64,000 bases of DNA from Paraspadella gotoi (lineage: Eukaryota > Animalia > Chaetognatha). Positions 228-61,900 of this stretch are shown piece by piece. The stretch covers positions 18,712,471 to 18,776,470 of the forward strand of contig CM119269.1 in assembly GCA_051294375.1 (NCBI GenBank). The letters are read 5' to 3'. Both the position numbers and the translations under genes were made by a program. The notes beneath the pieces are model-generated. The model searched no databases. It saw nothing but the letters and a program-made list of their open reading frames with translations, and was not told the origin of the DNA. How positions within the stretch are numbered: position 1 is the stretch's first letter; every line of letters begins with the position of its first letter.

Positions 228-3200
228 GTGAAACTGCGACGAGCTGTCGACGACTGGCGTCGAAGCCGCGTTCGCCTGATTCTCAATCTCGGCGACATTC
301 TAGACGCCTCTAGCACCCGCCTTGGGCGACGTCGCGAGGACCTGGCGGCGGTGGAGCGGGAATTCGGACGCCTGCTCCTGCCCACTGGTGGCGGAATCAG
401 AAGTGAACTCGGCGGCGGCAGCCACGGCACCGAAGTGCTCCATTTGATCGGCAACCATGACCTCTACAACGCCGATTTAGGCGAGTGGCAACGAATTCTG
501 CTAGAATCGATGACTATGTCAGTGCCTGGACCCGATTTCCGGCGCTCCTTTTCACCGACGCCCGGAGTTCGCTTCCTTGTGCTCCACAGTTACGCCCTCA
601 GCGTGCTCGGCGGCGACGGGATGATGGGCGGCCTCGACGGGAGGGCACTGCTTAACGCGCGAAACCCGAACTACAACAAGAACTTGGTCAAAAATCTTGA
701 GGGTGTCGAGCGGAGGTGGACCGCCTACAACGGGGGACTCGGCGACGAGCAGCTCGAGTGGTTGCAAGCCAGACTGACTGCGGCGTCGGCGGCCGGCGAG
801 AAGGTCCTACTCTTTTCTCACATCCCTCTTCATCCGCAGGTGTGTCTGGGGTTAATAAAGAGCGGGGCGGAGGGGTGAGACACGAGGCAGTTAGAGGGGC
901 CAAGATACTTATTTTTCTGCTCAGCGCTTTTGTACGCCAAGAAAAATAAATTTAAAAAAATGGCAGATAAGTAGTCGGTAGCGTTAACGCCAGAGGATGA
1001 GACAGACGTGGGGACAACGATAATTAATTAGGATGGAATGTGACGTTAAATGTCGACACTTAGGAGATACGGCATATCATATAGCAGCATTGAGTCCGGC
1101 CTGAGCTTCGCGATAGGCTGTACCCCCGAGTTACAGGCGGGGTTAAGCGCGCGGCCGGTCCCACTTATGAGTCGAATGTGAACGTTAAATATCGCGGAAA
1201 ATTTATAATATGGCATATTCGGATAGCTTAACAGGAGTAATTCTTGAAAACTTTAGAGGTTCTTCTCGTAAATCTTAATATTTCCAAAAAGGACAAAATG
1301 TAAAATTTGATTTTTTACGATTCCTAAAGATAACCACGCTAGACACCCGCCTTAGCGGCGCATGGTATTTTTCTTGCTTTTTTGTGTAATCTTTTTTTGC
1401 CTCTCTAATATGACGCGCCGTAAAGACAAAAGTGTTAAGAGAGCCAGAATTTGATTCAATCAGGTTAAAGCGGGAAAGTTAATGAGTACTGTTTAACGTG
1501 TTTTTTAAGCTAGCGTAATTTCTTGTGATAAAGGATGGGAAGGTGTCTCAAAATAGATGTGGAGGTAAAGTTATGAGAAATTTGAAGTTTACAAATATAT
1601 GGTTTTTTTTAGCAATTTCCGCGTTCTTTTAAAGAGAAACATTTGATGTCAAATTTCTAATCAATATTTTTACAACTGTGTTTCCTCCATCGTTCGAAAT
1701 TTCAAATTATCGTGCGTTGTGTTCTGTGCTCGATCTTCATGCCAGACCGATGTGAGACACATCGCCAGCAAGCCAACATTTTTTTTATTGTAAAATGGTA
1801 GAGTGAGATGAGACTGCGGGGTTTCCGCGGTGCGAGTTGCTCACACGGCACTTCTGAGAGTAATGCTAGTAAACGCGTTGAGGGAAAGACGACGCACTGA
1901 ATTGTCTACTAACGTGCCTAATCCGCTAACGGCCTAATCTCGTAAGCACTAATGCCCATAACCTAATCTGCTATCCCTTAATCTACGCCTTTGATCCCGT
2001 AAGCGTGCGAAACCACTAACACAAGATAATGCCTCAATGTTTTGTCGAAGTCGCGATGCTGACGTCTGGAAGTCTATGCCACAGGTCATGAAGATACAAT
2101 TTAATTTGAAATCGCATGGTTAAGAAAAAGTAAGTTACTGTAGTAAACTGGTGTTCTTATGCGAGAGTGTTAGAAAAAAAAATATTGTTGAAAATCATTT
2201 TGGCATTACTCATTTTGCGGATCGATGGCGGATGAAATCCGAATACATTCAAGGTCCGTTATATAATATTAATCATTATATTTAATTAGAATGGTAGGGA
2301 TTCCCATGATTCCCTATATAATTTAAGCTAGTTTTCAAAAACTCAGATACAGTAAAACATTTTAGAACAAATTTGTATTTAATCCATGCTAGGTATCCAG
2401 TTGTTTATCAAGATTTTAAAAAAAATAGTAAATTCATCATAAAGTTCCAGGAATTATAGTCGACAAAGTGAGTCTGAAATAGAGAAAAGCCTTATATCTC
2501 CTAAAGAAATGATTTTGACAACTGATATTGCTTGAGAGGTTTCCGATGATAGTCCTAATTAATTAAAAGCATATATTATTTTTGTAGGCGTGAACTAACT
2601 TATTCCGATAAAAAAATTATTTCGATGATAGTGGCGTCCCTCTTAACTGCCAGACGACCACCGGCTAGAACCCCGGACCTTTGGGTTGGGAGGCGAATGA
2701 CTTGCCTCCGGCACCAATGGCCGCTGATGACGGTTGGTGATTTTATGTCCACCATACATCCCCCCTCCCCGTAGGGAGAAGTCTGTTGCGTCTCTTCAGT
2801 GAATTGTTGTTGGTGGAAAGTTCGTCACCAGTGAGGCATGTCGCCTGATGTGTTGTGGGCGGAAAGTGCAGTCGCCAGGTTGAGGCATGTCGCCTGAAAG
2901 GTGTTGTTGTGCTGTTGTGTTCGGAAGTCGGGCTCACCAATGAAGAGACAGTAATTATTGATAAGTGTTAATGACAGAACCATTCAATATAAGCAGTCCC
3001 TGAGCTTCGGATCAGGCTGTAACACCGAGTTAACAGGCGGGTTAAGCGCCCCGTCCCTCTTAACTGCCAGACGACCACCGGGCTAGAACCCCGGACCTTT
3101 GGGTTGGAGGCGAATGACTTGCTCCGGCACCAATGGCCGCTGATGAACGGTTGGTGGATTTTAGTCCACCATACGAGTAACGCGGAGAGTTAGTTTTAAA

Positions 3201-9958: not shown

Positions 9959-11596
9959 ATCTCCTTTTTTTTTTACAAAAAAAATTCTTATTAAGTTTTT
10001 TTTTGCTTTTCTTTTTTGAATCAGTAGGGCGCGAACCCGAGTCCTTTGGATTGGAAGGAGCTCGCGCTACCTCCGAGGCTCCCGGACGAGTTCAGCTTCT
10101 TTCTTTCTCTTTAAATTATATGTTGCTCTCTCTCTCTCTTTTTCCCGTCGCTGTTGCTTCTGATTCTGATTTGTGACGTCGTCGTCGTCGTTGTTGTCGT
10201 CCGGCATCACATTTTTATCTTGCCAACTTGCATAACTTTTTCAACTTGCATAATTTTTTCAACTTGCATAATTTTTAACTTGCATAATTTTTTAACTTGC
10301 ATAATTTTTTAACTTGCATAATTTTTTAACTTGCATAATTTTTTTAACTTGCATAATTTTTTAACTTGCATAATTTTTTAACTTGCATAATTTCTTAACT
10401 TGCATAATTTTTTCAACTCGCATAATTTTTTCAACTCGCATATTTTTTTCAATTTGCATAATTTTTTGCAACTTGCATTTTTTTAACTTGCATAATTTTT
10501 TCAACTTGTATAATTTTTTTAACTTGCATAATTTTTTCAGCTTGCATAATATTTTCAACTTGCATACTTTTTTCAATTTGCATAATTTTTCAATTTGCAT
10601 AATTTTTTCAACTAGCATAATTTTTTCAATTTGCATAATTTTTTTAACTGCATAATTTTTTTAAACTTGCATAATTTTTTCAACTTGCATAATTTTTTCA
10701 ACTTGCAATTTTTCAACTGCATAATTTTTTCAACTTGCATAATTTTTTCAACTTGCATAATTTTTCAACTTGCATAATTTTTTCAACTTGCATAATTTTT
10801 TCAACTTGCATAATTTTTATACTTGCATAATTTTTTATACTTGCATAATTTTTTTAACTTACATAATTTTTTTAACTTGCCACCATTTTTTCGACTTTTA
10901 ACTATCTAGTTATCGAGTTTCATTAGTTAGGCAGTGAGGAAGTTGAAATGTGTGTCCATTTTCTTTGTTTCATATCGATTCAAATATTTTTTGTTTGAAT
11001 TTCCATTTAATATGATTTACTGCAATATGCAAATTAGATTATAGTAATTTTCTTTGATAGTAAAAAAACTTGGCGAGATCACTATACTTTTAAGATTTTT
11101 TTTCTATTATTCTTATAAAAATATAAAAATAAAGCCATATGATCAGACAGTCAATGCGGTATAGTTCTTAAAAAATAGGTTATTTTAGTTATTAATTTAT
11201 AGATGAAAGATAATATATTATGATAGTGGTACAACCAATATAAAAATTATCCATTCATTTAATAAATAAGCTATCTTGCCCCTGCCTCTATCCGACTCGC
11301 CCTTCCCCCACTCTCTATAACAGTCCTCCAAATACTTTGCCTGGGATTACGACAAGGCCCTCGACTGCCTGGCGAAATTCCCCGACACCGTGGTCGCGGC
11401 CATCGCTGGTCACGATCACGCGGGAGGCTTTCATCGTGACAAGGAAAGAGGACTCTCATTCCTCACCCTTCGATCTATGGTCGAGGAAATGCCCGGCACT
11501 GAAGCTCATTACACGGCCGTGCTGCATCCGGGCAAGCTCGTTGTCACGCGAGGCAAGGATCGAATGATCGAGATTATTTGGTCGACTGGGGGTTGA
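228..11596 (+). CDS. ADPRM: Mn-dependent ADP-ribose/CDP-alcohol diphosphatase-like metallophosphoesterase; last two exons 228-839 and 11324-11596 (5' exons lie outside the window)
   Basis: Calcineurin-like motifs NLGDILD, LIGNHDLYN, YNGGLGDEQLEWL, FSHIPLHP and AGHDHAGG. Acceptor ttttag at 227, donor cag|gtgtgt at 840, acceptor aacag at 11323. The phase-0 join gives ...HPQ|SSKYFAWDYDKAL...WSTGG*. Intron is ~10.5 kb. Confidence 0.85.
2635..3173 (-). mobile_element. Second copy of the TRIM-like element (one LTR truncated)
   Basis: Near-identical to 17520-18060, including PBS and PPT. Confidence 0.85.
3530..5415 (+). repeat. Long AT-rich dispersed repeat; direct copy split across 57491-58230 and 60856-61330
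   Basis: Long colinear matches, e.g. ggcttaccaat..catcctccacgccgattgttctctc and ggcaaagcggg..gtatctcac. Confidence 0.7.
8285..8750 (+). repeat. (CT)n microsatellite cluster within a repeated element family (also 7905-8280 and 9460-9960)
   Basis: Direct inspection. Confidence 0.9.
10016..10085 (-). repeat. tRNA-Gly-derived SINE-like fragment
   Basis: gagcctcggaggtagcgcgagctccttccaatccaaaggactcgggttcgcgccc: A/B-box-like with a cttccaa loop, similar to the module in the LTRs. Confidence 0.45.
10224..10880 (+). repeat. Minisatellite, ~18-20-bp unit aacttgcataatttttt(c)
   Basis: Over 30 tandem units with a variable T-run. Confidence 0.95.
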
Positions 11597-13977
11597 CAGA
11601 TGGGCCGACCAACTTTTGCGGACAGCAGACCTGTACAGATTTGAAAAAGTAGGTTGAGGGGCTGAGGGCGGGAAATTACCGTAATCGTTCTATGCACGGA
11701 TTCGGGGAAAAAAAATTACTAATAGTATATCACTTATATTCATTTTTTATCATTTCATTTCTGTTTATGCTTGTATTTACTGAAAATGAAATTTATTAAA
11801 ATTTATTAATATTTAATTCATGATTATTATTCGAAACTTGTCAGTGAAGTGAAGTGAAGTGAAGTGAAGTGAATAATCCAGATGATCCCCAGTCGACCGT
11901 CGTCACGAAGAAGAATTTCACCACGTGATCTCTCTCTCCCCCTGCCTCCCCCCTCCCTCTATTTTTTTTTCATTTTTTTCACTGACCTCAAATATTCCTA
12001 TTTTTCTCATACTAAATTCTTGTCACATTCATCATCGTCAAATTTTTGTCGGGGCACAGCGACTTTCAATTCTTGGGTGAATTTTACTTTCGACGACCGA
12101 AGTAAGGGGGGCTTAGAATAGTTTAGGTTAAAGGGTGGTGTGGGTTAACAAGGTTTAGGGTGAGGGTAATTAAATAATAATAAGTATTTTTTTTAAAAAA
12201 CGCCAAAACCTCGTTCGGCGAAAGTAAAATTTAGCCGTTGTACCAATTTCTTACTATATTACTATATTACTACATTACACAAATTGGAAGTCGTTTCTTT
12301 GAAACAATTCTTTTCAACTTCAACTGTTTAAACTAGAATACAGTTAATTTTATATCCGTTATAAATTGAAATAATTAACAATTAGTTATAATTAAAGAAT
12401 TTATTTATGAAAAATATTACTTTTTTCAACATCGAAGCGGTTCGTTATTTTTGTTTTTTAAGGTTATTTTCGTGTTTTATGAATTTCAATTTGGTACAAT
12501 TCCTCTCCAGTCTTCTCGTACGAGAAAATAACATTAACAATATACAATATAAAAATTATACGTACCATCATCGTTGGACCCCCGTTTTGACGAAATGAAA
12601 TAAACTGTTACCAAGTTTGAGCAAACAATGCCGGATCTGCCCACGATCATTAATTTGTCAATTAATTAATTAATTGACATGATCCGACATTTTTGTTTTT
12701 AAGTCTTTTCGACCATGACAAAAGCAACGACGACGTTAATGCCTATAACGATTAGTTGATTGACTTACCTGATTGATTGATTTATTAATAGAATAATTAT
12801 AAAATTAAATAAATTGATTGATTGAATAATTAATTGATTGATTAATTAGCTGATTTATTAATTTATTAATTAATACATCTTGCATTTACATTTAATATAA
12901 AGAGGAAAAAAAGCAAAAACAATTAGTAAAACAGGTTTTTTCTCATTTAAACTCATTTCCACTCGGACGATTTCCAGCTTAATTACACACTTTCCTGCCC
13001 ATATACAAAATTTTTTTTGTTTAAAAAAAAATAACTTTTCAAACCGTAGTGATAGTGGGGAAGGATGCTCGAGCCAGCTCTCGAATTGCGAGTTTGAAAG
13101 ATGCGGGGAGTAAAGGGGCAGTGGGTGTACGAGGCCGGCCGAGTCCGCCGCTGTGAAAAAAAAACAGCTGAGTCGCTCTTTGTCACGACTCACAAGTCAC
13201 GATACAGTTCGTTTCGGCTGTTAACTGCGGAAATCTAACACCGCCAACCCATCTTATCTCATTTCGTCGATCAAAAAAACAAGAAATGTAAACACACAAA
13301 AAAAAAAAAATGGTCAGGAAGCGAACCAGACTGGTCGCCCTCCTCGTGGCCCACTAAAATATTTACTAAATATTTACGTTCATGCAATCCTCTTCCTCCG
13401 CAGTCCGCAGCCAAACGTTTAACTTTAATCAACCCTTTAATTTTGTAGTCCGTTCTTTATGGGGGCTGGTTTTTACCAATATCATCATCCTGTTTCTCTT
13501 TGTAGTTTGTTATATACTGTAACTTTTATTCGGAAGTCTCTGTTGATAAATTAAAATTTTGAATGAGGAAAAAAAAAAACTTTTTCCTAAAAGATTTATT
13601 GCCCAAATTTCGAATATATATTGAATTGGCCTCTTTTATTACTTTCAAGTTACAAGAGTAGAACTGACTTCGAGATTACTTAAAGTTAAATCAATGTATG
13701 CATAAAAACTGAGATTATGACAACGGAAAGAAATGACTGCGCAGAATAAGTTCGTTGGAGATCATTTCGTAAATGCCGATCATTTCCTTCGTCTTTCTTC
13801 ACCTCGCCTTCCTCACCCTCGACAGATTCGCGAGTGTCAAGTAGCACTTTTGTATCAAATGAACCTCGAATACGCCTTCACTCCGTCTTTACAAGTGACG
13901 TCCAAAATTCGTCAAAGGTTTTGTGATATTTCGGCATATTCTTGCTTGGTTGATCACACGTGTTTGCGACGGTCACG

Positions 13978-15616
13978 ATGATGACGACGGCAAACATGAA
14001 GCGCGGTTTCTTGATCGCCATTGGAGTCGTGGTCTTTTTCGGGCTTACCTACCACCTTAAGTCCCTCGAAGCGGATAAGTTGGACGCCATCGCTCAGCTG
14101 AACTTTCAAGTGAATTCGCTCTTCAAGGAGCTGCGCAATCTTAAAGATCTCATAACGATACGAGGAGTATACGACGAACTTGGAAGCGGCGCCCCCAGTG
14201 CCTCGTTTCGCCTCGCCTGGCTCCGTTTTCTTAGACGTTGCTCCGACGAAAGGGTGAGATTTCTTCTCCTTCGCGAGGATCTTGTGCGAAGCGTCGACGC
14301 GACTCGGCATCCTTCGGCCGCGGTGCTCACTAATTTTTCTCACCTGGTCGTCTTCCGCGACCAAGTCGGCATCCTCGAGAGAATTCTCGGCGCGCCCGAG
14401 TTCGGCGTTAGCGGTCGGTTCAATCTCGACGCGCATTCGGTCAGGGGCGTGTCCAAGACCGGCGCCGTCGTAAAGTCGCCGATCGGGCAAGACACAACTC
14501 CGTCGCCGCCGAAGGATTCCGTCCTCTACGGATTCGTGATTCTCGACGGAACGCCGAGTCGCGTCAACGTTTCCATCCTCTACGAGCGACGCAACGACGA
14601 CCCACAGGACGGAGGGTACTACTGGGTACCTTGGTCGCCCAGAGGCGTCGCTATGGCCTTTTCCCTTTTCGAAACTCGTTCCGTCGACGTGGAAGGGTTC
14701 GAAGAGACGTTCCAAGTGCCCGCCAACATCTCGCAGTATTTGTGGGAACTGGAGGCGGCAGAGTTTATCGCCTGTGACGAGGAAAGGAACGCCGCCTTTG
14801 CCAAAAAGTCCATCAAGTCGGTGACATTGCACAAGACTAAGGACAAGGACAGAATAAGGAGGACGATGCGTCTAATCGTCAGTACGTACTTCTAAGTGAA
14901 TTTTTATAGTTACTACTAATTATAGTTTGCGCCGAGAGTGCTCGTGTAGCGATTGGACAGGTTACTTTTGGGTCTGTTCCACTTAGGTTTAATTAAACTC
15001 ATAGTCGTATTCATGTGATACACATCGAAGACGGTTATTTTATTTTTATTCCTCAGCACTCCGCAAAACTATGGCAAGTTGGCGAAAACGTAATTGGATA
15101 TTTGCCGGGACTCTACTCGGTTGGTACCGTCAGTGCTCCGTGATACCGCACGACCTGGACATGGACACAGCGCAATGGATCGACGACTACGAAGATTGGA
15201 TGATCGACTACTTTCGCACCCACAAGCTTCTCAAACTTTACGTCAAATTTGGCCTCAAGGACGACAGTCTCGAGTTCAAGCTCGGAGACAAAAAGTGGTA
15301 CACCATAGACCTTTTTTGGATGTACTCCCAAACCAACCAGTCCTGGGTGGGCATCCAAACGTTCGACGGACATTACACTAAAAAGGTGTCATTCTATCCG
15401 CCGATCGGGCGCATCTGCTCGGCGGACTTGCACGAGTACCTGGTCTACGTGCCATGCGACTCTTGGTCCATCATTCGGACAGAGTACGGGGCTGAAAAGT
15501 GGTTCCAGGGTAACCCGCGTTACAACTATAAGAAGGACGCTTACAACTGGCGGGTTAACGGGTCGTGGACTGCTAAACAATGGAAGGGAGGCGCCGTTTA
15601 CAAAATTTATCAGTGA
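13978..15616 (+). CDS. Fukutin-like (LicD family) type II membrane phosphotransferase; exons 13978-14881 and 15057-15616
   Basis: N-terminal TM (FLIAIGVVVFFGLTY). The phase-1 join a|gtacgt...cctcag|ca gives LIVTLRKTMASW. WIFAGTLLGWYRQCSVIPHDLDMD matches the fukutin GTxLGWYRQC...DxD signature, followed by FGLKDDSLEF and IDLFWMY. Which ATG starts the gene is uncertain. Confidence 0.85.
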
Positions 15617-16706: not shown

Positions 16707-18517
16707 TTAGCAAGAAATATGCAACGCCTGCTCACAGGAGACAAGATCTTCCAATGAATCCAACACAACGTCAGCATGGATTAAGTCGTCTCTCCTTCCT
16801 ACTCCCGTGAGAACGCCTATCAGGAAACTGCTGTTTTAATACCTACGGAACGTGGACTAATTTTTTACTCCGATTATTAACATTATTACTTTATTCAATT
16901 CACTAGATATGTACGTAGATACAGAGTAAAGTGATTTTCCGAACTAACGATATCTGTCAAATTTCGTACCTATGGTTTTTCCAAGCTTGGCGTCCTTCCC
17001 CATTTGGGTGTCGGCTCGAGTGTCACCCACCATGACGGCGTCCTTGGGATCCACATTCAGTCTCCGACAAATAGCGAGGACGCAATCCGGATCCGGTTTT
17101 GGTTTGAAGCCCTCGTCGCCGTCTAAATTGATGATTTTCACAATCGTTAGTCGTTTAAAATCAATTAACAAATCAATGGCTGGTAGCCAATCAACTTACG
17201 AGCTACAACTAGGTCAAAAAATCGACCCAATTCCAAATGCTTTAATGCGATAACGGTGCGCTCTCTCGAGTCGTTGGTGCATAAAACAAGCTTGATTCCG
17301 CGGTTCTGGAGCAGCTCCAGTAGTGGATGGAGATCGCAAGTCGGCACGAGTTGATCCGGCTTTAACTCGCAGTCTTTCCAACATTCTGACAGAGCCTTTA
17401 TTGATTGTGAAGAGACAGTAATTATTGATAAGTGTTAATGACAGAAACCCGTTCAATATAAGCAGTCCCTGAGCTTCGGATCAGGCTGTAACACCATGTT
17501 ACAGGCGGGTTAAGCGCCCCGTCCCTCTTAACTGCCAGACGACCACCGGGCTAGAACCCGGACCTTTGGGTTGGGAGGCGAATGACTTGCCTCCGGCACC
17601 AATGGCCGCTGATGAACGGTTGGTGGATTTTAGTCCACCATACATCCCCCCTCCCGTAGGGAGAAGTCTGTTGCGTCTCTTCAGTGAATTGTTGTTGGTG
17701 GAAAGTTCGTCACCAAGTTGAGGCATGTCGCCTGATGTGTTGTGGGCGGAAAGTACATCGCCAGGTTGAGGCATGTCGCCTGAAAGTGTTGTTGTTGCTG
17801 TTGTGTTCGGAAGTCGGGCTCACCAATGAAGAGACAGTAATTATTGATAAGTGTTAATGACAGAACCGTTCAATATAAGCAGTCCCTGAGCTTCGGATCA
17901 GGCTGTAACACCATGTTACAGGCGGGTTAAGCGCCCCGTCCCTCTTAACTGCCAGACGACCACCGGGCTAGAACCCCGGACCTTGGGTTGGGAGGCGAAT
18001 GACTTGCCTCCGGCACCAATGGCCCGCTGATGAACGGTTGGTGGATTTTAGTCCACCATAATTGTAAGATTACTCAATTATTCAAATTACATTTTCTTAT
18101 CAACATAACAGCGTTTTAAACTTTGAATCCAGTGATTGGCTACAGTATACTGTTTATATTACCTTCTCGGCGCTCTCGCTACCCACAAGCTGAGCGATGG
18201 CCCCGATAGCCTTTTGGCGAGCCTCTTGCATCGTGATTTCACAGAGGTATCCTTCTCCGGCGAAGAAGCTGCACCGCGACTTATCAAAACCGTAGGCTTT
18301 ATAGATGGCTTCCTTCACGTCCTTGCCCGTAAAATCCGACAAGCTTTATATGAACCCAAATCCCGGAAAAGTAAAAAATTAACTAGCTAAATAAGAATGC
18401 AATTAGCTTTTATGAATATATAAACCATTGTATGAGTGATTCCATCCAAGATTTGTATAGGGCGTCGAAGCTGATTAATGTTCCGTCCTTGTCGATGATG
18501 ATTAATTTTGGTAACAT
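16707..18517 (-). CDS. HAD-superfamily phosphatase (phosphoglycolate phosphatase-like); exons 18517-18426, 18343-18163, 17395-17200, 17122-16970, 16816-16707
   Basis: MLPKLIIIDKDGTL (motif I), LCTND (II), KPKPDP (III), MVGDTRAD (IV) and GVLTGVG. All four introns are GT-AG and frame-consistent. Confidence 0.85.
17408..18060 (-). mobile_element. Complete non-coding TRIM-like LTR element (LTRs 18060-17827 and 17642-17408; ~184-bp internal region) in HAD intron 2
   Basis: Two near-identical ~234-bp direct repeats. On the minus strand, PBS TGGTGAGCCCGAC follows the 5' LTR and PPT GGGAGGGGGA precedes the 3' LTR. TSD attg at 17404-17407 and 18061-18064. Confidence 0.88.
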
Positions 18518-19563
18518 TTTCAAGGTTCGATATATCTTTTTTGACGATTATGAATTTATATTCTGGCGTTGCGAACGGGCCAGCATCCGGGTTAATTAGG
18601 TGACCAAATTTTCCGCCGTCCACACTAAAGAATAGCGGTCTTTAGTTAAGAATGATAGATTAGAGTTGAGTTCTGCCAGAACTTCTGGATAGCGAATCTC
18701 CAAGTTCACAGATTAGGAGCGAAATTCCCTTCTTCTTTTACTATCTTGATTGACAAACATTTCGTCTTTTGAGCTGGGTGTGCAAGATTATAAAAAATCA
18801 GACTAATAAAAACCAAGTTTGTAAATAAATAATTTAGATATAATTATTTGTTTTTATATCGACAATTATTGTAACAAAGATACTATCTAATTAGAAAACT
18901 CGGGCGGAAAGTAATTTAAACCAGAAGACAACTCTAACATCCCTCTCCCAATTAAATTATCAAATACGAAATAAATTTAATATTTAAAATAAATAAAACT
19001 GTAAATCACAAGTTAAAATAAATACTATTTATTAAATAGGACAAATACTTTGATTTGTTTGATCTTTTTTTTTTTAATTTCTTGAAAATTATTTTAAACA
19101 ACAGATGTCTGCGATATAATCAACGAATAAACATAAGAGCAATGCAACTGGGGATAGTGATTAAAAACTCATGAAAAAAAACTCAAGACGCCAGTTCTTG
19201 ATGAACACGTCACGGCTCTTCGTTACCACACAACGCGACAGCACTCTTACTTTACTCTGTGCCGCTTTAGACTTGGTACAATTACTTGAAAAACCAGTGT
19301 TTAAGTACCACTACAGAATCAAGATATTGCCGTGTTGATTTTTTTTGTTATTATTGGTGTTGACTGTTGTTGATTATAAGATATTTCGCTTTTTTCTATG
19401 AAATGTAACACTCAAGATCTGGAATTTCAGAAAATAATACGATAATTTCGCCGGAAATATATTGGAGGTGCTTATAAAAAAGCCTGCCTAATCTTTGCCA
19501 AAAAAGTATGTGGGGAGCTTGGCGGGACTGTAGTTATAACCTCGGCGCGCGTCTTGCCGAAAG

Positions 19564-26900: not shown

Positions 26901-29900
26901 CTTTGATTCAACGGATCCGTCGGGTTTCGTTGTGGCGCAGGAAGCTATTCTCAGAACCGTCGGCACACCTCCCGCTATCGTCGTCAAACTCAAAGACTCT
27001 GTTGTCATTTGCGAGAGATCGGAGAAAGTTTGGGCAGCGGCGTCTGTCACCGTGGTCGATTGAGTTGCGCATGAAATTTCAATTTCACCACTGCAAGACT
27101 CTGGTTTTTCTGTTTTTAAAATATAAATATCCAATAATTTTAGGAACACAGCGCTTAAATGTCGTACTTGGTCATATGGTTATGGAAAAATTAATAAAAA
27201 AAAAAGTTAAAATCTTAATAGACCTTTTTCATAAAACAGTGATCCAACAGAGTCGTTTCCTGTCAAAGTCTGATAAGCGGGATCGCAACGCAACGCGTCG
27301 TAATGGTGGAATCTCCCGTTGGCGTCCACCACGAATTCCACAGTATCTCGCGAAGGCTGACAAGGTTTACAAAATTTAAGCTTTTTTATTGTTGCCTCTC
27401 ATTCTTTAATGAATAATCGAAATTAAAATTATCCTTTCAGAATTTTGAAACTTTCAGTCCTGGTCAACTTTTTCGTGTTTTCATCATCTTTCATCTCGAT
27501 AGCGGTAGCAGACCAAATTTAAATTTTAATGGGAACAGCATTAAACGAATCCATTATTAGTATTAGTTACAGAAGGCTTCATATTATAAAATGTGGTACC
27601 CCTTTTTTGTGACCAGAATCTGTTCCCACCAAACTAGCCGATCGAATTTAATAAATTTTGATATTCAACCCCTGACAAGAGATACAGGGCCCTGGGGGTG
27701 GACCCCTGGGGGGCCAAAAAATGCTAAAATTTTTTTTTTCATTTTTCAAAATTGTTTAGTAGCATCAGGTGCATTGACGTTTTAAACATAAGAAAAAACA
27801 TTTTAGAACTAAAATTGATAAATTTGCAATAATTAAGCATGGTTGAAGATGCATGGTTCATCGTTTTACTTACAATTTTCCCAAATGATTCCAAATCTGA
27901 CTTTAACTGCTGATGTTCATGAAGTTAAAAATTAAGGTAAATGAATATTTTTGAGGTAATAAATACGTTTTATTGGAAGAGTAAAACGTCTGTACAACTG
28001 TTCAAAACAAAAATAATAAAAATAAAAATAAAAATTTTTGACCATTTTTTGCCCCCGTGGGTGACCCCCCGGGGGGCCCATATCTCGACTCAGCGGTCAA
28101 ATATTGAAATTCGCCTCGATAGTTCTATTTGTATTCACATAGGGATCGTTCATTCCAAATTTCAATAAATTTAGAAGTTTTCTCGGAACGAGTTCTGGTC
28201 ACAAAAAAAGGGTACCTCATTTTATATTATGAAGCCTTCTGTATTGTGTTAAAATATTTTTTTGCAAAAATGTTCCGAACCATAAGTAATTCGTTAATTA
28301 AAATTATTGCTATATAACGTCAAAATTTTTTTGGGAATATTTTAAGTTTTTTTATTTGATTCTGATAGAGCTAATAATTTGCAAAAACTATTAAAATTAT
28401 CGGATGATGAGGATGAGGATGATTTTTTTAGGTTTTTCCCAATTTTGACCCACTTATCATCAATATATTGAAAAAAGAATTATACTTTGTGTAGACAACT
28501 TTTATAAGCTATCTGAATCTGCTTTTAAAAATACAAAATTAAAAAAAAAATTTTTGACATTTCTTATCTATAAATAAATATTAAAAAAATTAATTACTAG
28601 TGCTTCTAGCCATTTCAGAAAATTTTGGTCCCAAATCAAACTTCTGACTCACCCCATTGACAAAGTTTGGCCCTAATCTCGATGCTATTTTTTCGCGAGG
28701 AAAATGGAACCTTCTCCACCTCCGTTTTCGCGTGTCTAATAGAATCCGATTCTCTTGGAAATCCTTTTTCTCAAGACAGTTTTTTTTCTCGGCGGAATGT
28801 TCGCCAAAAACGAGAGCGGGGCACACGCTCTTAGTTACCGGCAAATAACTGGCGGAATTCTTGTTTATTCCGATCCAAATGAAGTTAGAGATCATATGTA
28901 AGGAATCGAAACATTACAAAAATATTGAGTGCAAAATATAGAATAAGAAAAAATATGGAGACAAAAAGAGGAACCGGAGATCACCGCGACATGCTCACCC
29001 ACGAAGAGAACTCTCCTCAACGATCGGAGGAGGCTGCATTTTATGAAAAACCAGCTTGGATGCTGGACGCGCCCGTGGTCAGGTATATCGAAATTTGACG
29101 TCATTTATAATTTATAATTATAATTTATAAGCCGTATAAGGGTTACTTTCGCCGACCGGGGTTAGGGTTGGGCATGGGTTAGGGGTGGTTTAGGGTTAGG
29201 GGTGGTTAGTAAGACGTAGTGAAAGTTACATACGAAAATTCTAAAAGTCAATTATGAACAACATACCATCAGTGAACATTAATTTGTAAAAAAAAAATAA
29301 TTTTGTTTTTTAATTTTCGCAGTAGGCTATATTTATATATAGTACTATCCTTATAAAATCCAAAAAATTTAAAATAGGCTTTTCTTAATTTTGATTGCAG
29401 ATTTGAATTCCTCGTCAAAAGTTGATAAAAAAATATAAATCATTTTTAAAAATTCTTTCATTAAGTGGGTTAAAAATTAAACTATATTTAATATATAAAA
29501 AGTTAATTTTCAGTTTAAAATATAGCTTTTTTTAATTTTTGACCCACTTAATGAAGGAATTTTTCTTTTTATCAATTTTTTATGACGAATCCAAATCTGC
29601 AAAAAAATCTTTAAAAAAACTGTTTTGAAATTTTATCATTTATTGGTTTAGTACTAGTATAAATATGGCCTACTGCGTAATTGTAAAATTTATTATAAAA
29701 TTTTTTATTACATAAATGTTCATAAGTATAATGTTGTTCGTTTTTCACTTTTAGAATTTTAATAAAAGTTAAACTTAGGAATTTTACTACGCCTTAGTGG
29801 TTAGGGTTAAAAGGGTTAGTGTAATTAGGTAATATTTTTTAAAAATTTTTTTAAAAAGTATTTTTAAATGGTTTTTCAAAAGCCGCCAAAACCGTGGTCG

Positions 29901-32900
29901 TCGAAAGTAAAATTTAGCCCATTATAAATTAATAAAACGACTCATAATTAATTACCCCGGTAGGTCGAACGCCCCTCTACTCTCAAACCTTCCCCCGTAC
30001 ATCGTCCACAACACTCACACTCCTTCCCTCGCGTCGTATACCGTCAAGCCGGCTCCCTATTCCGAAGATGGTCTCTCTGTTTTTCATCGCGATGGACACC
30101 TTGTCGGGTAAACCCAGTCAGGGTTAGCATTAAAAAACCCACCCAAAAAAAAACCCTATAAAAGCAGCTAGAAAAAAAAAAACAAAAAAAAAAAACCTAA
30201 AGTGTTTTTTTTTTTTTAAATTACTTAATTTTTTAATGTGAAACATTAAATTAATATATTTTTTATTGATAAAAAATAATCCTAAACCAATGTTTTACAT
30301 TTTTTCACTTTCGTGCTGACTTATTTTTGTGAAATCCTTTCTTTCGTTGTGTTTTGTATTGAGAAATAGTTTGAATAGGAAGTAAGGTAGTGTACATATT
30401 TGCGGTTCTGGCTTCTGTACCATTTTCCTTATATTAAGTAATCGTGAATCGCAAATTAAGTTAAGAGCTGCACATTAGAAATGATTGCTATTCTCTCATT
30501 ATTATTTAACACAATTCTAGGCTTCTTTTAAAGTTATGTATCAGAAAAAATTCAACTTCAATATAATTATGTTTGAATATTTGGAACAAGTTAAAGAATT
30601 TGTTTAAGATTAATAATAACTTCTGAAGAGACAGTAATTATTGTTATGTGTTAGTGACAGAACCGTTCAATATAAGCAGTCCCTGAGCTTCGGATCATGT
30701 GTTAAGCGGGTTAAGCGCCCCGTCCCTCTTAACTGCTAGGCGGCCACCGGGCTAGAAGTAGAACCCCGGACCTTTGGGTTGGGAGGCGAATGACTTGCCT
30801 CCGGCACCAATGGCCGCTGATGAATGGTTGGTGGATTTTAGTCCACCATACTTCTATTATAAAAAGAATCTATTCATAATTTCATATAATTAGGCAACTT
30901 GCCCCTGACTCTGGACAGGCTATTTTGGCATAAGGTCTCCTCCCTCTAAAAAGACTATTTTAAATTTAAACTAAAAAAAATAAATTATACTATTCTTAGC
31001 TTAATTAAATATTTTGATATTTTATTAAATTAACTCAAATGTTTTATCTGAACATCAAAATTTATTTTTAGCCCAAAAGACAACTTAGTGCAGCAAAAAT
31101 GTTCTAAAGATGCTCTTTGACTTTTAATGTATTATTTAGTATTTAATTACTATTTTTTAATAAAATTAAGTTTTTTCACTTTTTTCATAATGTGTTTTAT
31201 TCAGAAAATATAATATTTATATTTATTACATTTCTGTTTACCATAAAAATATTCATTAATTAATACTATTATTAAATATAATATTATATATAATATGACA
31301 GTCTGCTTGCTTAAATTTAAAAAAAAATCCAATAAAACACAATAAAACCCCCTCCAAAAAAACAAAAAAACTGGCTGGGTTTTTTGCCAATCTCGAGTCA
31401 AGTTACATTTTTGGTTGAAATTTACGGGCTAAACCATTTGAGATTGTTGAATAAAAAGTTTGTCGTGCAGTACGACATTCTTTTATTGTAGCGGCATTCC
31501 TGGAGATTTTGCTAATCATATCGGAGAATACTTTGTATTGGAACTACAGTCAAATTTGTTTAAGGGTTAGGGGTTCTTGAACCTCCAAATTTAAGCAAAC
31601 TCTTCTGCAGGGACAAGACGGCCGCTATTGTGGAAGCATTGAAGCCGGGTCAAAAACGAAACGGCGTCCGTCCTAGCGGAACTGATTCGCGGCTTCTCTC
31701 GAGGGACGAGGATCCCTTGTGGAACTTTAAGCGCCGGACGGCCATTCGAGGTCCAGAGGGCGAATTGGAGACGGAGTTTCGATCTCGTGGAGGCGGAGAA
31801 GGTAAGGATAAATATTTAGCACTTAACGCATGGGGCTTTTTTCTATTCTAATTGACTAATATATTATGCTAATATCCTTGTTTTCCCATTTTGTTGGAGC
31901 AGATGAAACCGTCGCTCCTAACCGCTACACCCCCTCGGCCTCTCCTCCTATCCGAACACCGACCAAATCCGCCTACCAGGAACAGTGCGATCAGATTTGG
32001 CACCGTTCCGACCCCCGGCGGCGCAAACATCCCGGGTCTAGCCCCTCAGAATCAGAGGCGGCAGGAAAGTCCACGGCAAACTCGGTCGGCTTCGACCCTT
32101 TGACCGGGCTAGACGTAGGTCGGACCTATTCTAGTCTAATTGGGAAAGGCGGCGGTGGTAGGAGATCGGGCGGGGTCAGGGAAGAAGCTCGTCGATGGCG
32201 CGAGATCGAGGAGGCTCGTCCTTCTCATTTCCCGCCATGGGCGACGTACGATGGGAATGAAGAAGCCTCCCCGATGGCGTGCGGGTAAAAGAGGGGGAAG
32301 ATGGTCGTAAAGGGTCCGTAGCTCCTTTGCGCTTTGAAGGATGGGAGACTAGCAAGTCGTTTAAATTATTTGCTTCGTATATAAAAGTTGGCTTATGTCA
32401 AACGTGACATTTATTTTAGTAACAAAGTATAGTCTTATTATGATAATAAACTTTTTTTATTTTAAACTAATTAATCTACTGTTATATAGCCTTAGATGAA
32501 AAATTAGGATGGGGAAATAGATAAGCTAGAAGAAAAAACGCAAAGCATTATTTTTCTTAGGTGACGGCTAATAGTATTAGTAATTATGTAATATTAATAC
32601 TAGTTATATGATTTGTGAAATACTCACCGTGAGATAACCAGCATTTGAAAGGCTCTCCGTGGGCTTTGCCGCTCTATTTTTAGTTTCAGGCATGTTATTG
32701 TTTTGTTCTGGTAGTTCCGTTTGCAATACCAAAGTTCGATGCTCACCAGGAATCCTGAGTTTGGGAAAATATTTTCTTCATGAAATGATGTATCCAATTG
32801 TTCTATGTGATCTGAAAGAGCGAAACCCTCACCTTGTTTGCCTGGATGAAACGCCTCTGCAACAGCATAACCTTATTAGCGCTACCGATATTAAAGCGAA

Positions 32901-32939
32901 AGCCAAGATACTGGTAGCAAAGAGTAAAAAGTATTCCAT
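23987..32939 (-). CDS. Single-pass membrane protein with N-terminal TM + CCC, long low-complexity linker and degenerate C2-like domain (synaptotagmin-like architecture); exons 32939-32833, 32754-32628, 28859-28653, 27380-27224, 27100-26447, 26223-25800, 25590-25380, 25297-25070, 24823-24587, 24256-? (3' end uncertain)
   Basis: Ten consecutive exons join in frame at GT-AG sites. Starts MEYFLLFATSILAFALISVALIRLCCCR. C2-like segments: FGELEVSIVLCGEDQLSL, NETFSFSW...VLVTILRRD, KGVIEMDTLDISREPLSVIVPLT. Confidence 0.65.
27570..28241. mobile_element. Tc1/mariner-type MITE
   Basis: ~50-bp TIR cagaaggcttcatattataaaatgtggtaccc..., flanked by TA on both sides. Confidence 0.8.
28955..32288 (+). CDS. Uncharacterised ~282-aa protein nested antisense in intron 2 of the C2-like gene; exons 28955-29082, 29964-30107, 31611-31801, 31903-32288
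   Basis: Four GC-rich exons with GT-AG junctions and matching phases (2,2,1), METKRGTGD...EEASPMACG*. No domain recognised. Confidence 0.6.
29210..29796. mobile_element. hAT-type palindromic MITE
   Basis: TIR taagacgtagt/actacgcctta; 8-bp TSD gtggttag at 29202-29209 and 29797-29804; long internal inverted symmetry. Confidence 0.7.
30624..30850 (-). mobile_element. Solo LTR of the TRIM-like family
   Basis: tgaagagacag...gtccaccata with TSD cttc at 30620-30623 and 30851-30854; small internal deletion. Confidence 0.85.
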
Positions 32940-33006
32940 TTTTGGCACGGTCTGTATAGTACAGTAAACTTAAGCGTTGTGAAAGTTGCAGATCAAAATT
33001 CGAATA

Positions 33007-33733
33007 CAGAAGGCTTTATATTATAAAATGTGGTACCCCTTTTTTGTGACCAGAACACGTTCCGAAAAAACTACTGGACCAAATTTATTGAAATTTAGTA
33101 TGAACGATCCCTATGTGAATATAAATAGAACTATCGAGGCGAATTTCAATATTTGACCCCTGGGCCGAGATATGGGGCCCCAGAAGGGTCACCTTTAGGG
33201 GCAATAAATGGTTAAAATTTTTTAAAAATTTTTTTCATTATTTTTGTTTTGAACAGTTGCATAGACGTTTACCTTTCCACAAAAACGTATTAATTACCAC
33301 AGAAATATTAGTTTACCTTAATTTTCAGCTTCATGAACATCAGCAGTTCAAGTCAGTTTGGGAATAATTTAGGCAAATTGGAAGTTAAATGATGAACTAT
33401 GCATCTTCAAACTATGCTTAATTATTAAAAATTTTTCAATTTTACTTTTAAAATGTTTTTTTTATATGTTTAAAAGGTCAATGCACCTGATGCCACTAAA
33501 AATTTTTAAAAAATAAAAAAAAATTTAGGTTTTTTTTGCCCCCCAGGGGTCCACCCCCAGGGCCCTGTATCTCTTGTCAGGGTTTGAATATTAAAATTCG
33601 CCTCGATAGTTCCATTTATATCGTCATTAAGACTCGAAATGTAAAATTTCATGAAATTCGATCAGGTAGTTTGGTAGGAACATATTCTGGTCACAAAAAA
33701 GGGGTACCACATTTTATAATATGAAGCCTTCTG
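33007..33733. mobile_element. Tc1/mariner-type MITE, second copy in opposite orientation (partial third copy ~24880-25053)
   Basis: Same TIRs, TA flanks and internal homology. Confidence 0.8.
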
Positions 33734-35379
33734 TAATTAATCATAAATAATCTTGTAATATAAAATATTTATTTTTGTAAAAACAATTTTTGATTTCTTG
33801 ATTTTTGCAGTAGCCTATATTTATATAAAATTTTAAAATTTAAAAAAAAAATTTAGTTTTAAAAGCAGATTCGAATTATAAAAGTTTATAAAAAATATAT
33901 GTCTTAAACTTTCATGAAGTAATATATTTGTTGTATTAAAATTTTAAATTTTTTTTATTGTTTATTAAAATTTAATAATGTTAATTTTATCAGTTTTTAG
34001 GATTTTAACCCATTTAATAAAATAATTTTTTAAAAATAGTTTTTTCTATCAAATTTTCGTAAGAAATAAAATCTGCTTTCCAAACAAACAAAAATTTTTT
34101 AAAAATTTCTTATGGTAAGTTTTTTGTATAGATATACTATTTATTCCTATTCTTAAAAACCTTTTTAATAATATAACATACAATTAGGGAATGTTAACAT
34201 ATTTTAGTAGTGGTTTTAAGCTGAAGTCCGGCGTAGAGAAAATTCAACCAACGTTGCATTCTTCTCGGTACCGTAGGGTATTGTGCGAATAGGAAAAAAA
34301 TTAAACTTATATCAAAAAGAAAAAATATAAGTGATTATTATTATATGATGGAGGTCTTCAACCACCAAAGCCTGTCCAAAGTCAGGGGCAAGATAGCTTA
34401 TTTATTAAATGAATGGATAATTTTTATATTGGTTGTACCAATTTCATATTATAAAATAAAATTCGTTAATTTTTTGCCATTGAAATCTAATGGTAAATTC
34501 TAAAATCACCACCCGATAGGCTTCTGCAAATATAGAATTTCGTTCACCCCAATCTTCTAAACCATAAACCACTGCGCACCATCTATTGTATTGCTGCTAG
34601 TGTTTCCCTTACTGATTGAACCAGTATGATTAACTATTAAGCTTAAAATGTTCATCGTTTAGACCCTCGGCTTGGTTTTTTATTTCTTTTTCATCTGGTC
34701 AACGTAGTACCTATTATCAAACAAAAAATAAGAAATATACAAATACAGATAAGTAATGCCATCAATTAATAAAAAGTGTTTTGAAAAAATTTCCTGTGTT
34801 TAGCCAAATTTTCTGAGTGAGTGAATAATTCGGGATTCGCAAAAAAGTGTTTATTATAAAAAGGTTTCGTCGCTGTGTTTGATCAGTAATAGCGTCGTCT
34901 AAATTCTATTTGTGGTAGGTTCAGCGAAGATGCCACGCGGTTTAGAAAGCTATAGAGAAAGCTTCAGCCGACCCAGCGGCCAGTTATGAAAAGAAGTTAG
35001 TGAGACAAGCTCCGTCGCTCATCGCTGCTCGCGTACCGCGGGACGCGCGTTCACGAGGCAGCAAGTCACGTGACAAAAAGGAGAGAAGGAGCGGCGACTC
35101 TTCCGTCTTGTTCATCGCCGCCGAACCGGAAACAAAACAGGACCGATATTTCTTGAGCTTTTGCTGTGGCTCCCACTCCGCGAAGGAGAGAAAGAGAGAA
35201 GGGTTATTGGTCTTAGCTAGTGGAACAAAAATATAAACATGCCACTTCTTTCTGACAGTACTGGCAGTAAAAAGATTCAAAAGAGAGATGAGACAAAAGC
35301 GGGGGCCTCTCGGTTAACTCGAAACGACTAAAATAACACTGATGACAACTGAAATTCGTAGAGTAAAGTTGGTGTTTTG

Positions 35380-35548
35380 CAACCAACCCACAGGTTCGGG
35401 GTTCTAGCACAGTGGTCGCCACGCAGTTAACAGGGACTGGGCGCTTAAACCGCCTGTAACTCTGTGTTACAGCCTTTTCCGAAGCTCAGGGACTGCTTAT
35501 ATTAAACGTTTCTGTCACTAACTCATAACAATTATTATGGTCTCTTCA
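35380..35548 (+). mobile_element. Diverged partial solo LTR of the same family
   Basis: ggttctagc...gggcgcttaaaccgcctgtaactctgtgttacagcc...ccgaagctcagggactgcttatat...tctcttca. Confidence 0.75.
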
Positions 35549-45200: not shown

Positions 45201-45326
45201 CCTTCATAACATTGAGAGAGAGAGAGAGAGAGAGAGATAGAGGGAAGGAAAGTAGCCAACAAAGACGTGAGACAGGACAATGGTGAAATGTGAGGACAGG
45301 TTAAGATGGGGAGAGAGAGACAAGAG

Positions 45327-45357
<31 letters not shown>

Positions 45358-58949: not shown

Positions 58950-61900
58950 AGAGGTTAAAGTTTCCAACATTTCCTTGTAAATCTCTATACAACAACGAAA
59001 AGAAAGGATATACCATGGATACATAAATTCAAATTCAAAACAAAATAGAGAGAAAAATATATTTTTTATTGTTTAAAACAATGGTTGTGAGATATTTTGG
59101 TCTCACGCTCGCGAAGGCAAACATTCGAACGTTGCCCGTTTTGAATAGAAAAGACGTTCTCATTTTCTGTGAAACTTTATTAGTCAAAATTCTACGGAGA
59201 CCCATGTTAAGACAGTCGGAACGGGCAACGTTCGAATGTTTTTCCTTCGCGAGCGTGGAGACCAAAATATCTCACAGTAAAAACGGGTTTTTGAAGCGGG
59301 TACAACGTTTGAGCTCTGAAGAGAAAAGTGAAAAAAAAATACGGACAACGCGGACATGGTTCGGCTCTGATAAGAGCGCGAATTTGCTTCATGAAAATAA
59401 AAAAAATTTCACAAAGCAAATTCGCGCTAAAGAAGGCTCTCATCAGAGCGGAAACATGTCCATATTTTTTGCTTCACTTTTACATTTGTTTTTAAACAAG
59501 AAAAAACTTTGTATCTAAAACTTACCAACTACAACAAAACGAAAGAAATTACAATATAAAATCTATTTTTAATCAATAACGCTGACTTCCCTCGTTATTT
59601 TGTTAAGTTAGTGATATCGGTGTAGGTTTATTGTAGATTCGCAAACTCAAAGTGGATTCCACATGGCCTTTGAACCTTCACATTTGATATGTCTTTAAAA
59701 TTCGCGTTTTAATGCTTTTAATGGAGACGAATTAATTTATTTGCAAACATTTTTTATTAAACGAACATGTTTCAGCTCACAATTTGAGCCTTTAAAGAGG
59801 CTGGTTTTACAGGGCGCCACACCCGCAGCGGTGTCACCTCGTGGCGACAGCGAGACAGCATTTTTCATGTAGTCCAGAGCTTTGGATCTGGCAGTAGGCC
59901 CATGCCTACAGGCGGGTTACCGGTCCATCCCACTTTCTACATGACAACCTCAGGGCTCGAACCAGGGACGCACATTGGGATGGTGCATTAGTCCACTGAG
60001 CCACTGAGGCGCTGTGAAAGAAACAGCTTTAATCCATCTGTGGTGATAGGACCACCAGACCTTCATCAGCGTCAAAGTTGTTTGTGAATTACAAATTTTT
60101 CTACAAACTTCTGGAAACTTTACCCCCTCTCTATCTCTCTTTCCCCCTCCCTCTTCTTCTTTTTGTGCCAAATTCATAAAATTAGTAAAATCATATTTAT
60201 TTTTAACTTATTTTTACTTCTTTAAGATTATTTTGAATTTTGTACTTTTCATTTCATTTTTATTCAAAAGTAGTTGAAATATTGGCTATTAATTGTTCTT
60301 ATTATTGTTATTAGCGAGGATAATGGCGCCACCCTCGAGGTTATTATAGATCAATTTACTAAATAAAATAATATAAAAAACATATATGAATATAAACATA
60401 ACAGTAGAATTATTGTTAACTTAAATTCAAAAGAATAGTATTAGAAAAATCTTTCAAAAATGCAATTTATTTCCTTTTTTTTAAGTTTTGAAATATTAAT
60501 GTAAGTATTTAATAATTTTAGTAATATACATGTATACATATAATTTAATAAAAATTAAAATATTTAGAACTATGTATAATTAACCAGAAAATAAGCTTAA
60601 AAATAACTAATTTTAGTCTAGAAACATTTTATTTCAAAAAACAACAGCTATTTTTGAACCGGAAGTGGTACGCCACATAAAGTGGCGTGGAAAGTCCATA
60701 AATCACAACCTGAAATTTTTATTGTGATATTCGTTTTTTCACTAAAATTGGAATAAGAAACTTTGCGAGAACCAACAACTTTTTTAAAGTAGGATATTTT
60801 TGGGAGCCCTATAATATATAAGGTTTTTGANNNNNNNNNNNNNNNNNNNNNNNNNGGTTTTTGAAAATACCTCTAAAATATTAGATAATTAGACAGCAGA
60901 GAAAACCTCCCATTCATAAAAAAAAATGAAAATGAATTTGTCATATTGTTATTTAGATTAATTGACTAATTACAAACAAATGATTCATATAAATTGAGAA
61001 AATGATGGGTAAAAAATATTCATCTTGGTCTCGGTTAACTATTAAGTTATCGTTAAAGTTTTGTTTTAATAATATTAATATTTTTTTTGTATTTATAAAA
61101 GCAATGGTCTAAAATTTTGTAAGCGTTTCGTGCTATATTGCTTCATCTTTTTTACTATTTTTGATCTAGTTAGCTTTTTTGTTGATGGTCAAGGGTTATG
61201 GTCAGACACAGTAATGTCCAGTAGTGTATATCGCACATATTACCAAAAGTAATAATCAATTAATTTGGCTCAGAAACAATTTTAAAGGGACAAAATCAGC
61301 ACGAGTTCGTTTCGCCACGTTATTTTTCATTGTGTCGTATATAAGGACAGGTTTGATCCAGCTCTTTTGATTTAAAATGATGCTGATTATCTCAGGAACT
61401 TTAGCTTTTTTGTTACTTGGTTACCAGGTGGGAACAGAATCTTTTTTTGCAAAAGATAAAGAATCAATATCCGAAATGATCTGACGAAACACAAAAGCAC
61501 CGAATGCAATGATTGTTTCGTCGTAAGCACTATAAAAATTCGATCTTCTACCAATTCTGTTGAATCATGGAGAACCAAGGCATCTTTAGCAAAGATATCA
61601 AAATATAAATCCCTCAACAGAAACTAATTGAGCCAAAAATTAATATTTTTTAAATTTTTAAGTTTTTTATTATATATAAAAATACTTAACCATACAGCAA
61701 TTATATATTTGGGATAACTTTTAATTATTCTTTTAAAATAAGTTTAAAATAAGTAATTTGTCAATTGAAATAGAATCGTTTCGTCACCTTTTGCCATAGT
61801 ATTATTAGTTCCTGAGCGTTATATACTGCAGTATATATAATGTTCAATCACTGCTTTCCCTTTCAGTGGCTTGTATGGAGGCAGGGAAAATTGTTAATAG

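Follow-up and report, generated by a model that had tools for sequence, protein, structure and literature searches.

How a very short, non-coding element copies itself, and what the tRNA-like sequence in its ends is for, are the questions raised by a repeat in the genome of the chaetognath Paraspadella gotoi. The repeat lies at positions 17408 to 18060 of a window of 64 000 nucleotides, by which we mean the whole stretch analysed (assembly GCA_051294375.1, contig CM119269.1, positions 18,712,471 to 18,776,470, forward strand). A preliminary description of this DNA had read it as a miniature long terminal repeat (LTR) retroelement holding a tRNA-like RNA polymerase III (Pol III) module in each LTR. 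Judged by its sequence, the feature is a new family of the Helenus-like kind which, with the predicted twister ribozyme that we describe here, bridges Helenus and the LTR retrozymes; the twister-type ribozyme after the tRNA-like block is the part that looks new. We hold it to be somewhat probable that this non-coding mini-element, with the block as its likely Pol III promoter and with a predicted twister, spreads as a retrozyme-style RNA circle by way of a CsRn1-type Gypsy element. Both the twister-like motif in each LTR and the location of the element within a host intron go beyond the preliminary description.

A complete miniature LTR element

All of the parts previously proposed, namely LTR, primer-binding site (PBS), 184-nt internal region, polypurine tract (PPT) and second LTR, were located, together with a target-site duplication (TSD) of exactly 4 bp (Table 1). 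The element is shorter than 1 kb, has two LTRs, is non-coding and has an internal part bounded by PBS and PPT, as is characteristic of a terminal-repeat retrotransposon in miniature (TRIM). No open reading frame of at least 120 aa was found over the internal region, and four short frames across the element gave no match above a Pfam cut-off. The two LTRs were 97.9 % alike and differed by short indels alone, all in homopolymer runs, which suggests that this insertion is young. A short direct repeat of ~22 nt was also seen within the internal region, at 17717–17774.

The element has fixed termini and is present as many dispersed insertions. Ends and variants were studied on the contigs of four runs (X1, X5, X9 and X2), which give neither transcript start nor strand. 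Both junctions of the element were found on contigs of X5 and X2, which come from two studies, and the element is therefore not an assembly artefact. Among the matches listed, 13, 65, 19 and 122 contigs of X1, X5, X9 and X2, respectively, left the element at 17642 for unlike flanks, and 14, 74, 40 and 152 left it at 17827; the flank agreement of such contigs was 0.42–0.49 at the LTR ends. In X5 and X2, the contig depth summed over the element exceeded that of the flanks by a factor in the thousands, a ratio that is not a copy number. Runs of other organisms yielded 0–2 low-depth contigs each, giving no evidence of spread.

At least five copies had been counted in the window. Five insertions do occur, but only four belong to one family (family 1); the fifth is a solo LTR of a diverged family (family 2), 66 % identical overall to family 1 and known from this one copy. 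The family-2 LTR has a different, GC-rich 3′ third, and the AT-rich 3′ part of the family-1 LTR is not conserved in it (58 %). The TSD was exactly 4 bp in all three insertions with both ends intact, two being not testable. Taken together, the fixed ends, 4-bp TSDs, PBS and PPT support the earlier proposal of a non-autonomous LTR element mobilized by Gypsy and carrying a tRNA-like block. The integrated LTR begins with TA in all copies, and TG precedes the LTR only after the PPT (17643–17644, 17642); integrase would therefore leave an unusual TA end at U3.

The element lies in sense orientation in an intron of a HAD-hydrolase gene and ends 12 nt before the end of that intron. One X9 contig skips 767 nt at this place; the skip was first taken as the empty site of a nested insertion, which was ruled out because the skipped stretch is a GT..AG intron of the gene. 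With its spliced contig, X9 resembles RNA, and 1,111 of its contigs fall on the stretch. These contigs are not proof of independent transcription of the element, because many extend into unrelated flanks. The host gene, which is HAD-like and has short introns, occupies window positions 16800–18600 on the minus strand, and the nearness of the element to the acceptor might affect splicing.

A tRNA-like block in each LTR

The 71-nt block of the 3′ LTR (17609–17539) was present as quoted in the preliminary description, which had called it a whole tRNA-like module. This wording proved too strong: ARAGORN found no tRNA, the A box has a mismatch and, although the block folds better than its shuffles (z −3.7, 0/200), it does so into no cloverleaf. 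The 3′-LTR block aligned over its full length to the Rfam tRNA model at 12.9 bits, compared to a gathering cut-off of 29 (E 2.6; 101 nt), and the same model gave no match to the 5′-LTR block or to the family-2 copy. The T arm that had been quoted is that of the 3′ LTR only, whereas an additional G is found in this arm in the 5′ LTR, in the solo LTR and on many contigs.

The two families were compared at the promoter boxes. The B box is identical at 10 of 11 positions and the A box at 6 of 12; the B box of most Helenus families, GGTTC, is present in both families, whereas their A box, TRGCY..YGG, is found in family 2 and not in family 1. Pairs of A and B boxes with one mismatch each occurred 0–8 times per shuffled window. 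Common block variants on the contigs preserve an acceptor-like stem (17539 and 17542, G-U to G-C), and another at 17595 shifts the A box towards the consensus. The sequence suggests that the block is likely a promoter remnant derived from a tRNA or from a short interspersed nuclear element (SINE), and a candidate internal Pol III promoter, rather than a functional tRNA. The sense strand of the family-1 element, like that of the family-2 LTR, contains no run of four T residues (T4), so that Pol III would be left without a terminator inside the element; T4 was lacking from only 3 of 44 GC-matched tiles of the window.

A predicted twister ribozyme behind the block

The 76 nt on the 3′ side of each tRNA-like block can be parsed as a twister ribozyme in circular permutation, with its opening in P5 (type P5). 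Reference elements were taken from PMC8501958, PMC5113685, PMC11662667 and PMC5408937. The published order is P5, P2′, G-A-X-G-G, U-A-A, P2, G-C, P3, P4 with the loop U-C-C-X′-A-A-G-C, and P5′ (PMC5113685, PMC8501958, PMC5408937). The motif reads P5, P2′, G-A-C-G-G, a 6-nt linker, U-A-A, C-C-C, G-C and a 7-bp P3, followed by a 5-bp P4 with the loop U-C-C-G-A-A-G-C and by P5′. It carries the general base G (in L1′) and the general acid A (in L1), and both pseudoknots are present, T2 as G-C and C-G and T1 as three pairs plus A.A.

Comparison of the two families found 16 of 16 core bases identical, compared to 63 % identity elsewhere (naive p 7e-4). From family 1 to family 2 there are compensatory changes in T1 (C-G to U-A), in P4 (U-A to A-U) and in one pair of P3 (A-U to G-C); one P3 pair is broken in family 2, and P5 differs in sequence yet pairs over 7 bp. 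In the contigs of runs shallower than X2, variants of the motif were seen only in loop L3 and as a change from G-U to A-U in P5 (among the matches listed). X2 showed further variants in the linker and none at core bases, among 40 of its 79 variants. Of the seven LTR segments in the window, a descriptor of the motif matched four, failing on two decayed segments and a split one; it matched nowhere else in the window and gave no matches in 150 shuffles of the window or in 80,000 LTR shuffles.

In our judgement, it is highly probable that the 76-nt motif is homologous to twister ribozymes and fairly probable that the predicted twister is active. No hammerhead core in a workable order was found on the sense strand of the element. 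As the candidate ribozyme is of the twister type, the element may work in a retrozyme-like manner, yet it falls outside the published definition, which specifies a type III hammerhead. A loose twister pattern also matched 17 metagenome loci; these are chance matches, as none of the 17 has a P4 of at least 3 bp and none is BLAST-similar, and a tighter pattern gave no matches in viral contigs.

Proposed replication and rival explanations

In the retrozyme-style cycle that we favour, Pol III would initiate in the 5′ LTR, close to LTR position 34, and read through the 3′ LTR. The twisters of the two LTRs are predicted to cut at U^A (17929/17928 and 17512/17511), and the unit RNA between the cuts would have a 5′-OH and a 2′,3′-cyclic phosphate and be without a terminal repeat. 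By analogy with retrozymes, RtcB would close this unit into a circle; RtcB circularizes animal retrozyme RNA in vitro (PMC7229834). A tRNA-Trp would prime at the PBS, and reverse transcription round the circle would rebuild both LTRs; in plant LTR retrozymes, circularization is likewise followed by reverse transcription round the circle (PMC4918200, PMC5680766, PMC7761336). The second strand would be primed by the PPT, and a Gypsy integrase would leave the 4-bp TSDs. The PBS fits the motif of the CsRn1 clade of Gypsy, for which priming by tRNA-Trp and 4-bp TSDs are reported (PMC2582038) and, since no autonomous partner was found in the window, the CsRn1-type link is drawn from the PBS and the TSD alone.

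A number of observations weigh against such a cycle. No autonomous partner is present in the window, and the contigs gave no sign of a transcript start, of cleavage or of a circle, the junction of which would read the same as LTR sequence. The A box of family 1 is degenerate, and the block scores below the tRNA threshold; furthermore, the absence of T4 is not significant, as 858 of 5,000 dinucleotide shuffles also lacked it. Rfam twister models gave no match in either family at E up to 10, P1 is absent, with a linker of 5–6 nt in its place, and P2 comprises no more than two clean pairs, together with a mismatch or a bulge. In twisters P1 is reported to be dispensable and flaws in P2 to be tolerated (PMC5113685, PMC11662667, PMC5408937), and no tested example combining an absent P1 with so flawed a P2 turned up in the available literature. 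The nested fold compatible with a twister lies 8–10 kcal/mol above the minimum-energy fold (pseudoknots unscored), which itself mispairs the T1 and T2 strands, and the folding z-scores of the twister are only −1.9 and −2.6. The covariation rests on two families, one of them single-copy, and the shuffle result for the descriptor overstates its significance, because the descriptor was written after the sequence had been seen; the comparison with family 2 is the stronger evidence. Finally, among 40 of its 79 variants, X2 shows changes at X as well as at X′ of the T1 pair; these are CpG sites, and the variants reach ~9–12 % of depth.

The lack of an Rfam twister match, the missing P1, the short P2 and the competing fold would also be expected of an ordinary Helenus-like TRIM, an explanation that we consider rather unlikely. 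Its LTR would have come from a SINE-like piece whose twister no longer acts or no longer matters, and normal strand transfer would use a linear transcript made by Pol III, which reaches from the tRNA-like block into the flank and has a long R region. The first T4 lies 122 nt past the 3′ LTR of this copy, so that a linear template could carry a terminal repeat, and Helenus itself is thought to derive from the insertion of a SINE into an LTR (PMC10886601). However, all 16 core bases have been kept across 34 % divergence and the pseudoknot and stem changes are compensatory, which this explanation can hardly account for without selection on the ribozyme fold. Less probable still, in our view, is that the twister is active while the tRNA-like block is a mere passenger, the unit being excised from Pol II or host read-through RNA or driven by a TATA-like stretch in the 3′ third of the LTR. 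The degenerate A box of family 1 would fit this, as would the sense orientation of this copy within an intron of a transcribed gene. The 3′ part of the LTR also holds what we take to be TATA-like and AATAAT motifs, but this AT-rich part is the one that family 2 has not conserved. Plant retrozymes have been proposed to depend on read-through (PMC4918200, PMC5680766, PMC7761336). A passenger block is nevertheless difficult to reconcile with a B box so well conserved between the families, with A and B boxes that are canonical in family 2, or with common variants that keep the acceptor-like stem or bring the A box nearer to the consensus.

The preliminary description had also considered a SINE dimer, to be recognized by TSDs of variable length or by tails. 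A dimer of a tRNA-derived SINE, moved by target-primed reverse transcription and like an LTR element by chance, would explain why a tRNA-like head is followed by a structured body and why one copy is 5′-truncated, and RTE non-LTR elements are known to carry twisters at their 5′ end (PMC8501958). This explanation is very improbable and largely refuted by the uniform 4-bp TSDs, the solo LTRs with TSDs, the absence of an A-rich tail, the sharp ends in four runs, the PBS and PPT, and the conserved 33 nt that lie upstream of the tRNA-like block. Beyond the present element, we give even chances to the broader proposal that animals have LTR retrozymes, that is, tRNA-Trp-primed, CsRn1-dependent mini-elements whose LTR combines a Pol III promoter with a ribozyme (a twister here and a hammerhead in the Helenus-2 elements of Synergus) and which would replicate via small RNA circles.

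Relation to Helenus and other known systems

The family type had been thought undescribed, but a tRNA counterpart of Cassandra has already been published as Helenus (PMC10886601). Helenus elements are TRIMs with a tRNA-like sequence in the LTR, and their animal families have a 4-bp TSD and a Gypsy-type PBS (Kojima 2024, PMC10886601); their Pol III activity is unvalidated (PMC10886601). The element shares with Helenus/TRIMp3 a length below 1 kb, a tRNA-like block in both LTRs, PBS, PPT, 4-bp TSD and a Gypsy-type PBS, and two Synergus families also use tRNA-Trp (PMC10886601). It differs in that its LTR starts with TA, whereas that of Helenus starts with TG, and in that its tRNA-like block is near the 5′ end of the LTR with no T run behind it, whereas many catalogued animal Helenus LTRs have a T run directly after the block. 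Helenus-1_MLe and the Synergus-2 families resemble the element in that their tRNA block is also far from the 3′ end of the LTR. A further difference is the twister-like motif, as the available text of PMC10886601 names no ribozyme.

Twelve longer motifs of the element were unmatched in the published Helenus consensus set as available, in a motif search that can miss line breaks; of six shorter motifs, two matched only unrelated places in the Helenus supplement, from which the Trp-PBS control was recovered. No animal Helenus family in the available supplement of PMC10886601 has the lengths of the element. By these sequence comparisons, its family is not among the Helenus sequences published there. 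When the LTRs of the Trp-primed wasp elements Helenus-2_SyJa and Helenus-2_SyUm were inspected by eye, a type III-like hammerhead core was seen after the tRNA block, with three stems and complementary loops, and it is absent from the available text of PMC10886601. These hammerhead-like cores, recognized by eye, may be a parallel to the design of the present element and as such lend it support by analogy.

Plant LTR retrozymes are likewise non-coding and Gypsy-dependent, with a ribozyme in each LTR, PBS, PPT and a 4-bp TSD (PMC4918200, PMC5680766, PMC7761336), and their unit RNA has no R region and is circularized, as is predicted for the element. They differ in having type III hammerheads, a PBS for tRNA-Met and a length of 1–1.5 kb, and no tRNA-derived promoter has been described for them in the available sources. 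The present element is from an animal, of the twister type, 653 bp long, with a PBS for tRNA-Trp, and is known here from sequence alone. Gypsy elements of the CsRn1 clade share the tRNA-Trp PBS motif and the 4-bp TSD (PMC2582038), but are autonomous and coding. The T-variant twisters of Perere-3 resemble the motif in having all core elements, a P3 that starts GC-CUGUA and a weak or absent P1 (PMC5408937, PMC8501958, PMC11662667); they are, however, of type P1 and belong to an autonomous non-LTR element, at its 5′ end, whereas the motif described here is permuted, has a P2 strand of 3 nt, lies inside LTRs and is missed by Rfam.

Cassandra and Ajax are TRIMs whose LTRs also have an internal promoter that goes back to a small RNA, in their case to 5S rather than to tRNA, and transcripts of Cassandra end where Pol III terminates inside the 3′ LTR, which leaves a short repeat. 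In the hammerhead SINE-like repeats of schistosomes, a self-cleaving ribozyme comes after a Pol III promoter, as may be the case in the element (PMC6765202). However, these repeats and the animal non-LTR retrozymes are tandem, have type I hammerheads and are without LTR, PBS, PPT and 4-bp TSD (PMC6765202, PMC7229834).

The literature available to us yielded neither a twister-bearing LTR element nor one that joins a tRNA promoter to a ribozyme, nor any LTR retrozyme of animals, although the supplement of PMC11662667 may list the motif. A 2026 preprint (10.64898/2026.07.22.740005) describes LTR retrozymes as primarily of plants and with type III hammerheads, whereas those of animals are said to have no LTR, PBS or PPT (PMC7229834, 10.64898/2026.07.22.740005). 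The roles of twisters are little known, and the case found among retroelements was that of RTE non-LTR elements, which have one at the 5′ end (PMC8501958).

Other copies and other features of the window

The 3′ LTR of the second full-type copy breaks off at 2635 and probably resumes at ~1167–1100. It is split inside the twister motif by ~1.47 kb of unrelated sequence (1167–2634), which starts with CAC, ends near GTG and is perhaps a DNA transposon; the LTR fragment on its far side is degraded. Elsewhere, the window holds a metallophosphoesterase fragment at 228–878 (+), a LicD/fukutin-like gene in two frames at 13954–15616 (+), with few close relatives, and CNOT2/NOT2 exons at 56560–56860 (+). 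In a quick CNOT2 tree built from 53 of the 108 hits, the eight closest relatives formed a clade that grouped with none of the named groups sampled. Tandem arrays (units of 17–18, 14 and 22 nt) and dispersed inverted repeat families, which may be miniature inverted-repeat transposable elements, occur at 10225–10950, 62791–63425, 27557–33746 and 43534–46287. Broken reverse-transcriptase-like frames at 53000–55600 (−) had no Pfam match; from their motifs we take them to be Penelope-like.

Table 1. Coordinates of the element, its parts, its host intron and its other copies (window positions)
Feature	Position	Strand	Remarks
Whole non-autonomous LTR element (TRIM)	17408..18060	-	653 bp; termini TA...CA; junctions on X5 and X2 contigs
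TSD ATTG, left copy	17404..17407	.	exact 4-bp match on + strand; 5 and 6 bp fail
TSD ATTG, right copy	18061..18064	.	same 4-bp comparison
5′ LTR	17827..18060	-	234 bp
3′ LTR	17408..17642	-	235 bp
Internal region, non-coding	17643..17826	-	184 nt
PBS, tRNA-Trp type	17813..17825	-	12/13 with Trp PBS of PMC10886601 Fig. S2
PPT, then TG, then 3′ LTR	17645..17655	-	read from sequence
Small hairpin opening LTR	17621..17640 (3′ LTR), 18058-18039 (5′ LTR)	-	by folding; similar hairpin starts family-2 LTR
tRNA-like block, 3′ LTR	17539..17609	-	A box degenerate, from 17601; one mismatch in B box
tRNA-like block, 5′ LTR	17956..18027	-	A box from 18018
Predicted type-P5 twister, 3′ LTR	17461..17536	-	76 nt; predicted cut between 17512 and 17511
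Parts of predicted 3′-LTR twister	P5 17536-31/17466-61, L1′ 17523-19, L1 17512-10, P2 17509-07		
Remaining parts of predicted 3′-LTR twister	T2 17506-05, P3 17504-17486, P4/L4 17485-68		
Predicted twister, 5′ LTR	17878..17953	-	sequence identical to 3′ copy; predicted cut between 17929 and 17928
Predicted unit RNA between cut sites	17512..17928	-	417 nt; would be circularized
Host GT..AG intron of HAD-hydrolase gene	17396..18162	-	767 nt; 110 nt minus element and one TSD
Second full-type copy, family 1	2635..3173	-	96 %; 5′-LTR twister motif intact; TSD not testable
Solo LTR, family 1	30624..30850	-	4-bp TSD; P3 of twister motif deleted
5′-truncated decayed LTR, family 1	35380..35548	+	85 %; twister core mutated
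Solo LTR, family 2	59793..60059	-	267 bp; 4-bp TSD; canonical A and B boxes; twister motif 59943-59866, predicted cut between 59919 and 59918

Significance

With the 76-nt motif come a predicted site of cleavage and a predicted circle of 417 nt, which makes the proposal testable. If it is true, an LTR element based on a twister would be on record for the first time, and a permuted twister without P1 would have a concrete biological role. The ribozyme would thereby bear on the present picture, in which LTR retrozymes are described from plants and with hammerheads, on the roles of twisters, and on how TRIMs of the Pol III type obtain usable RNA ends.

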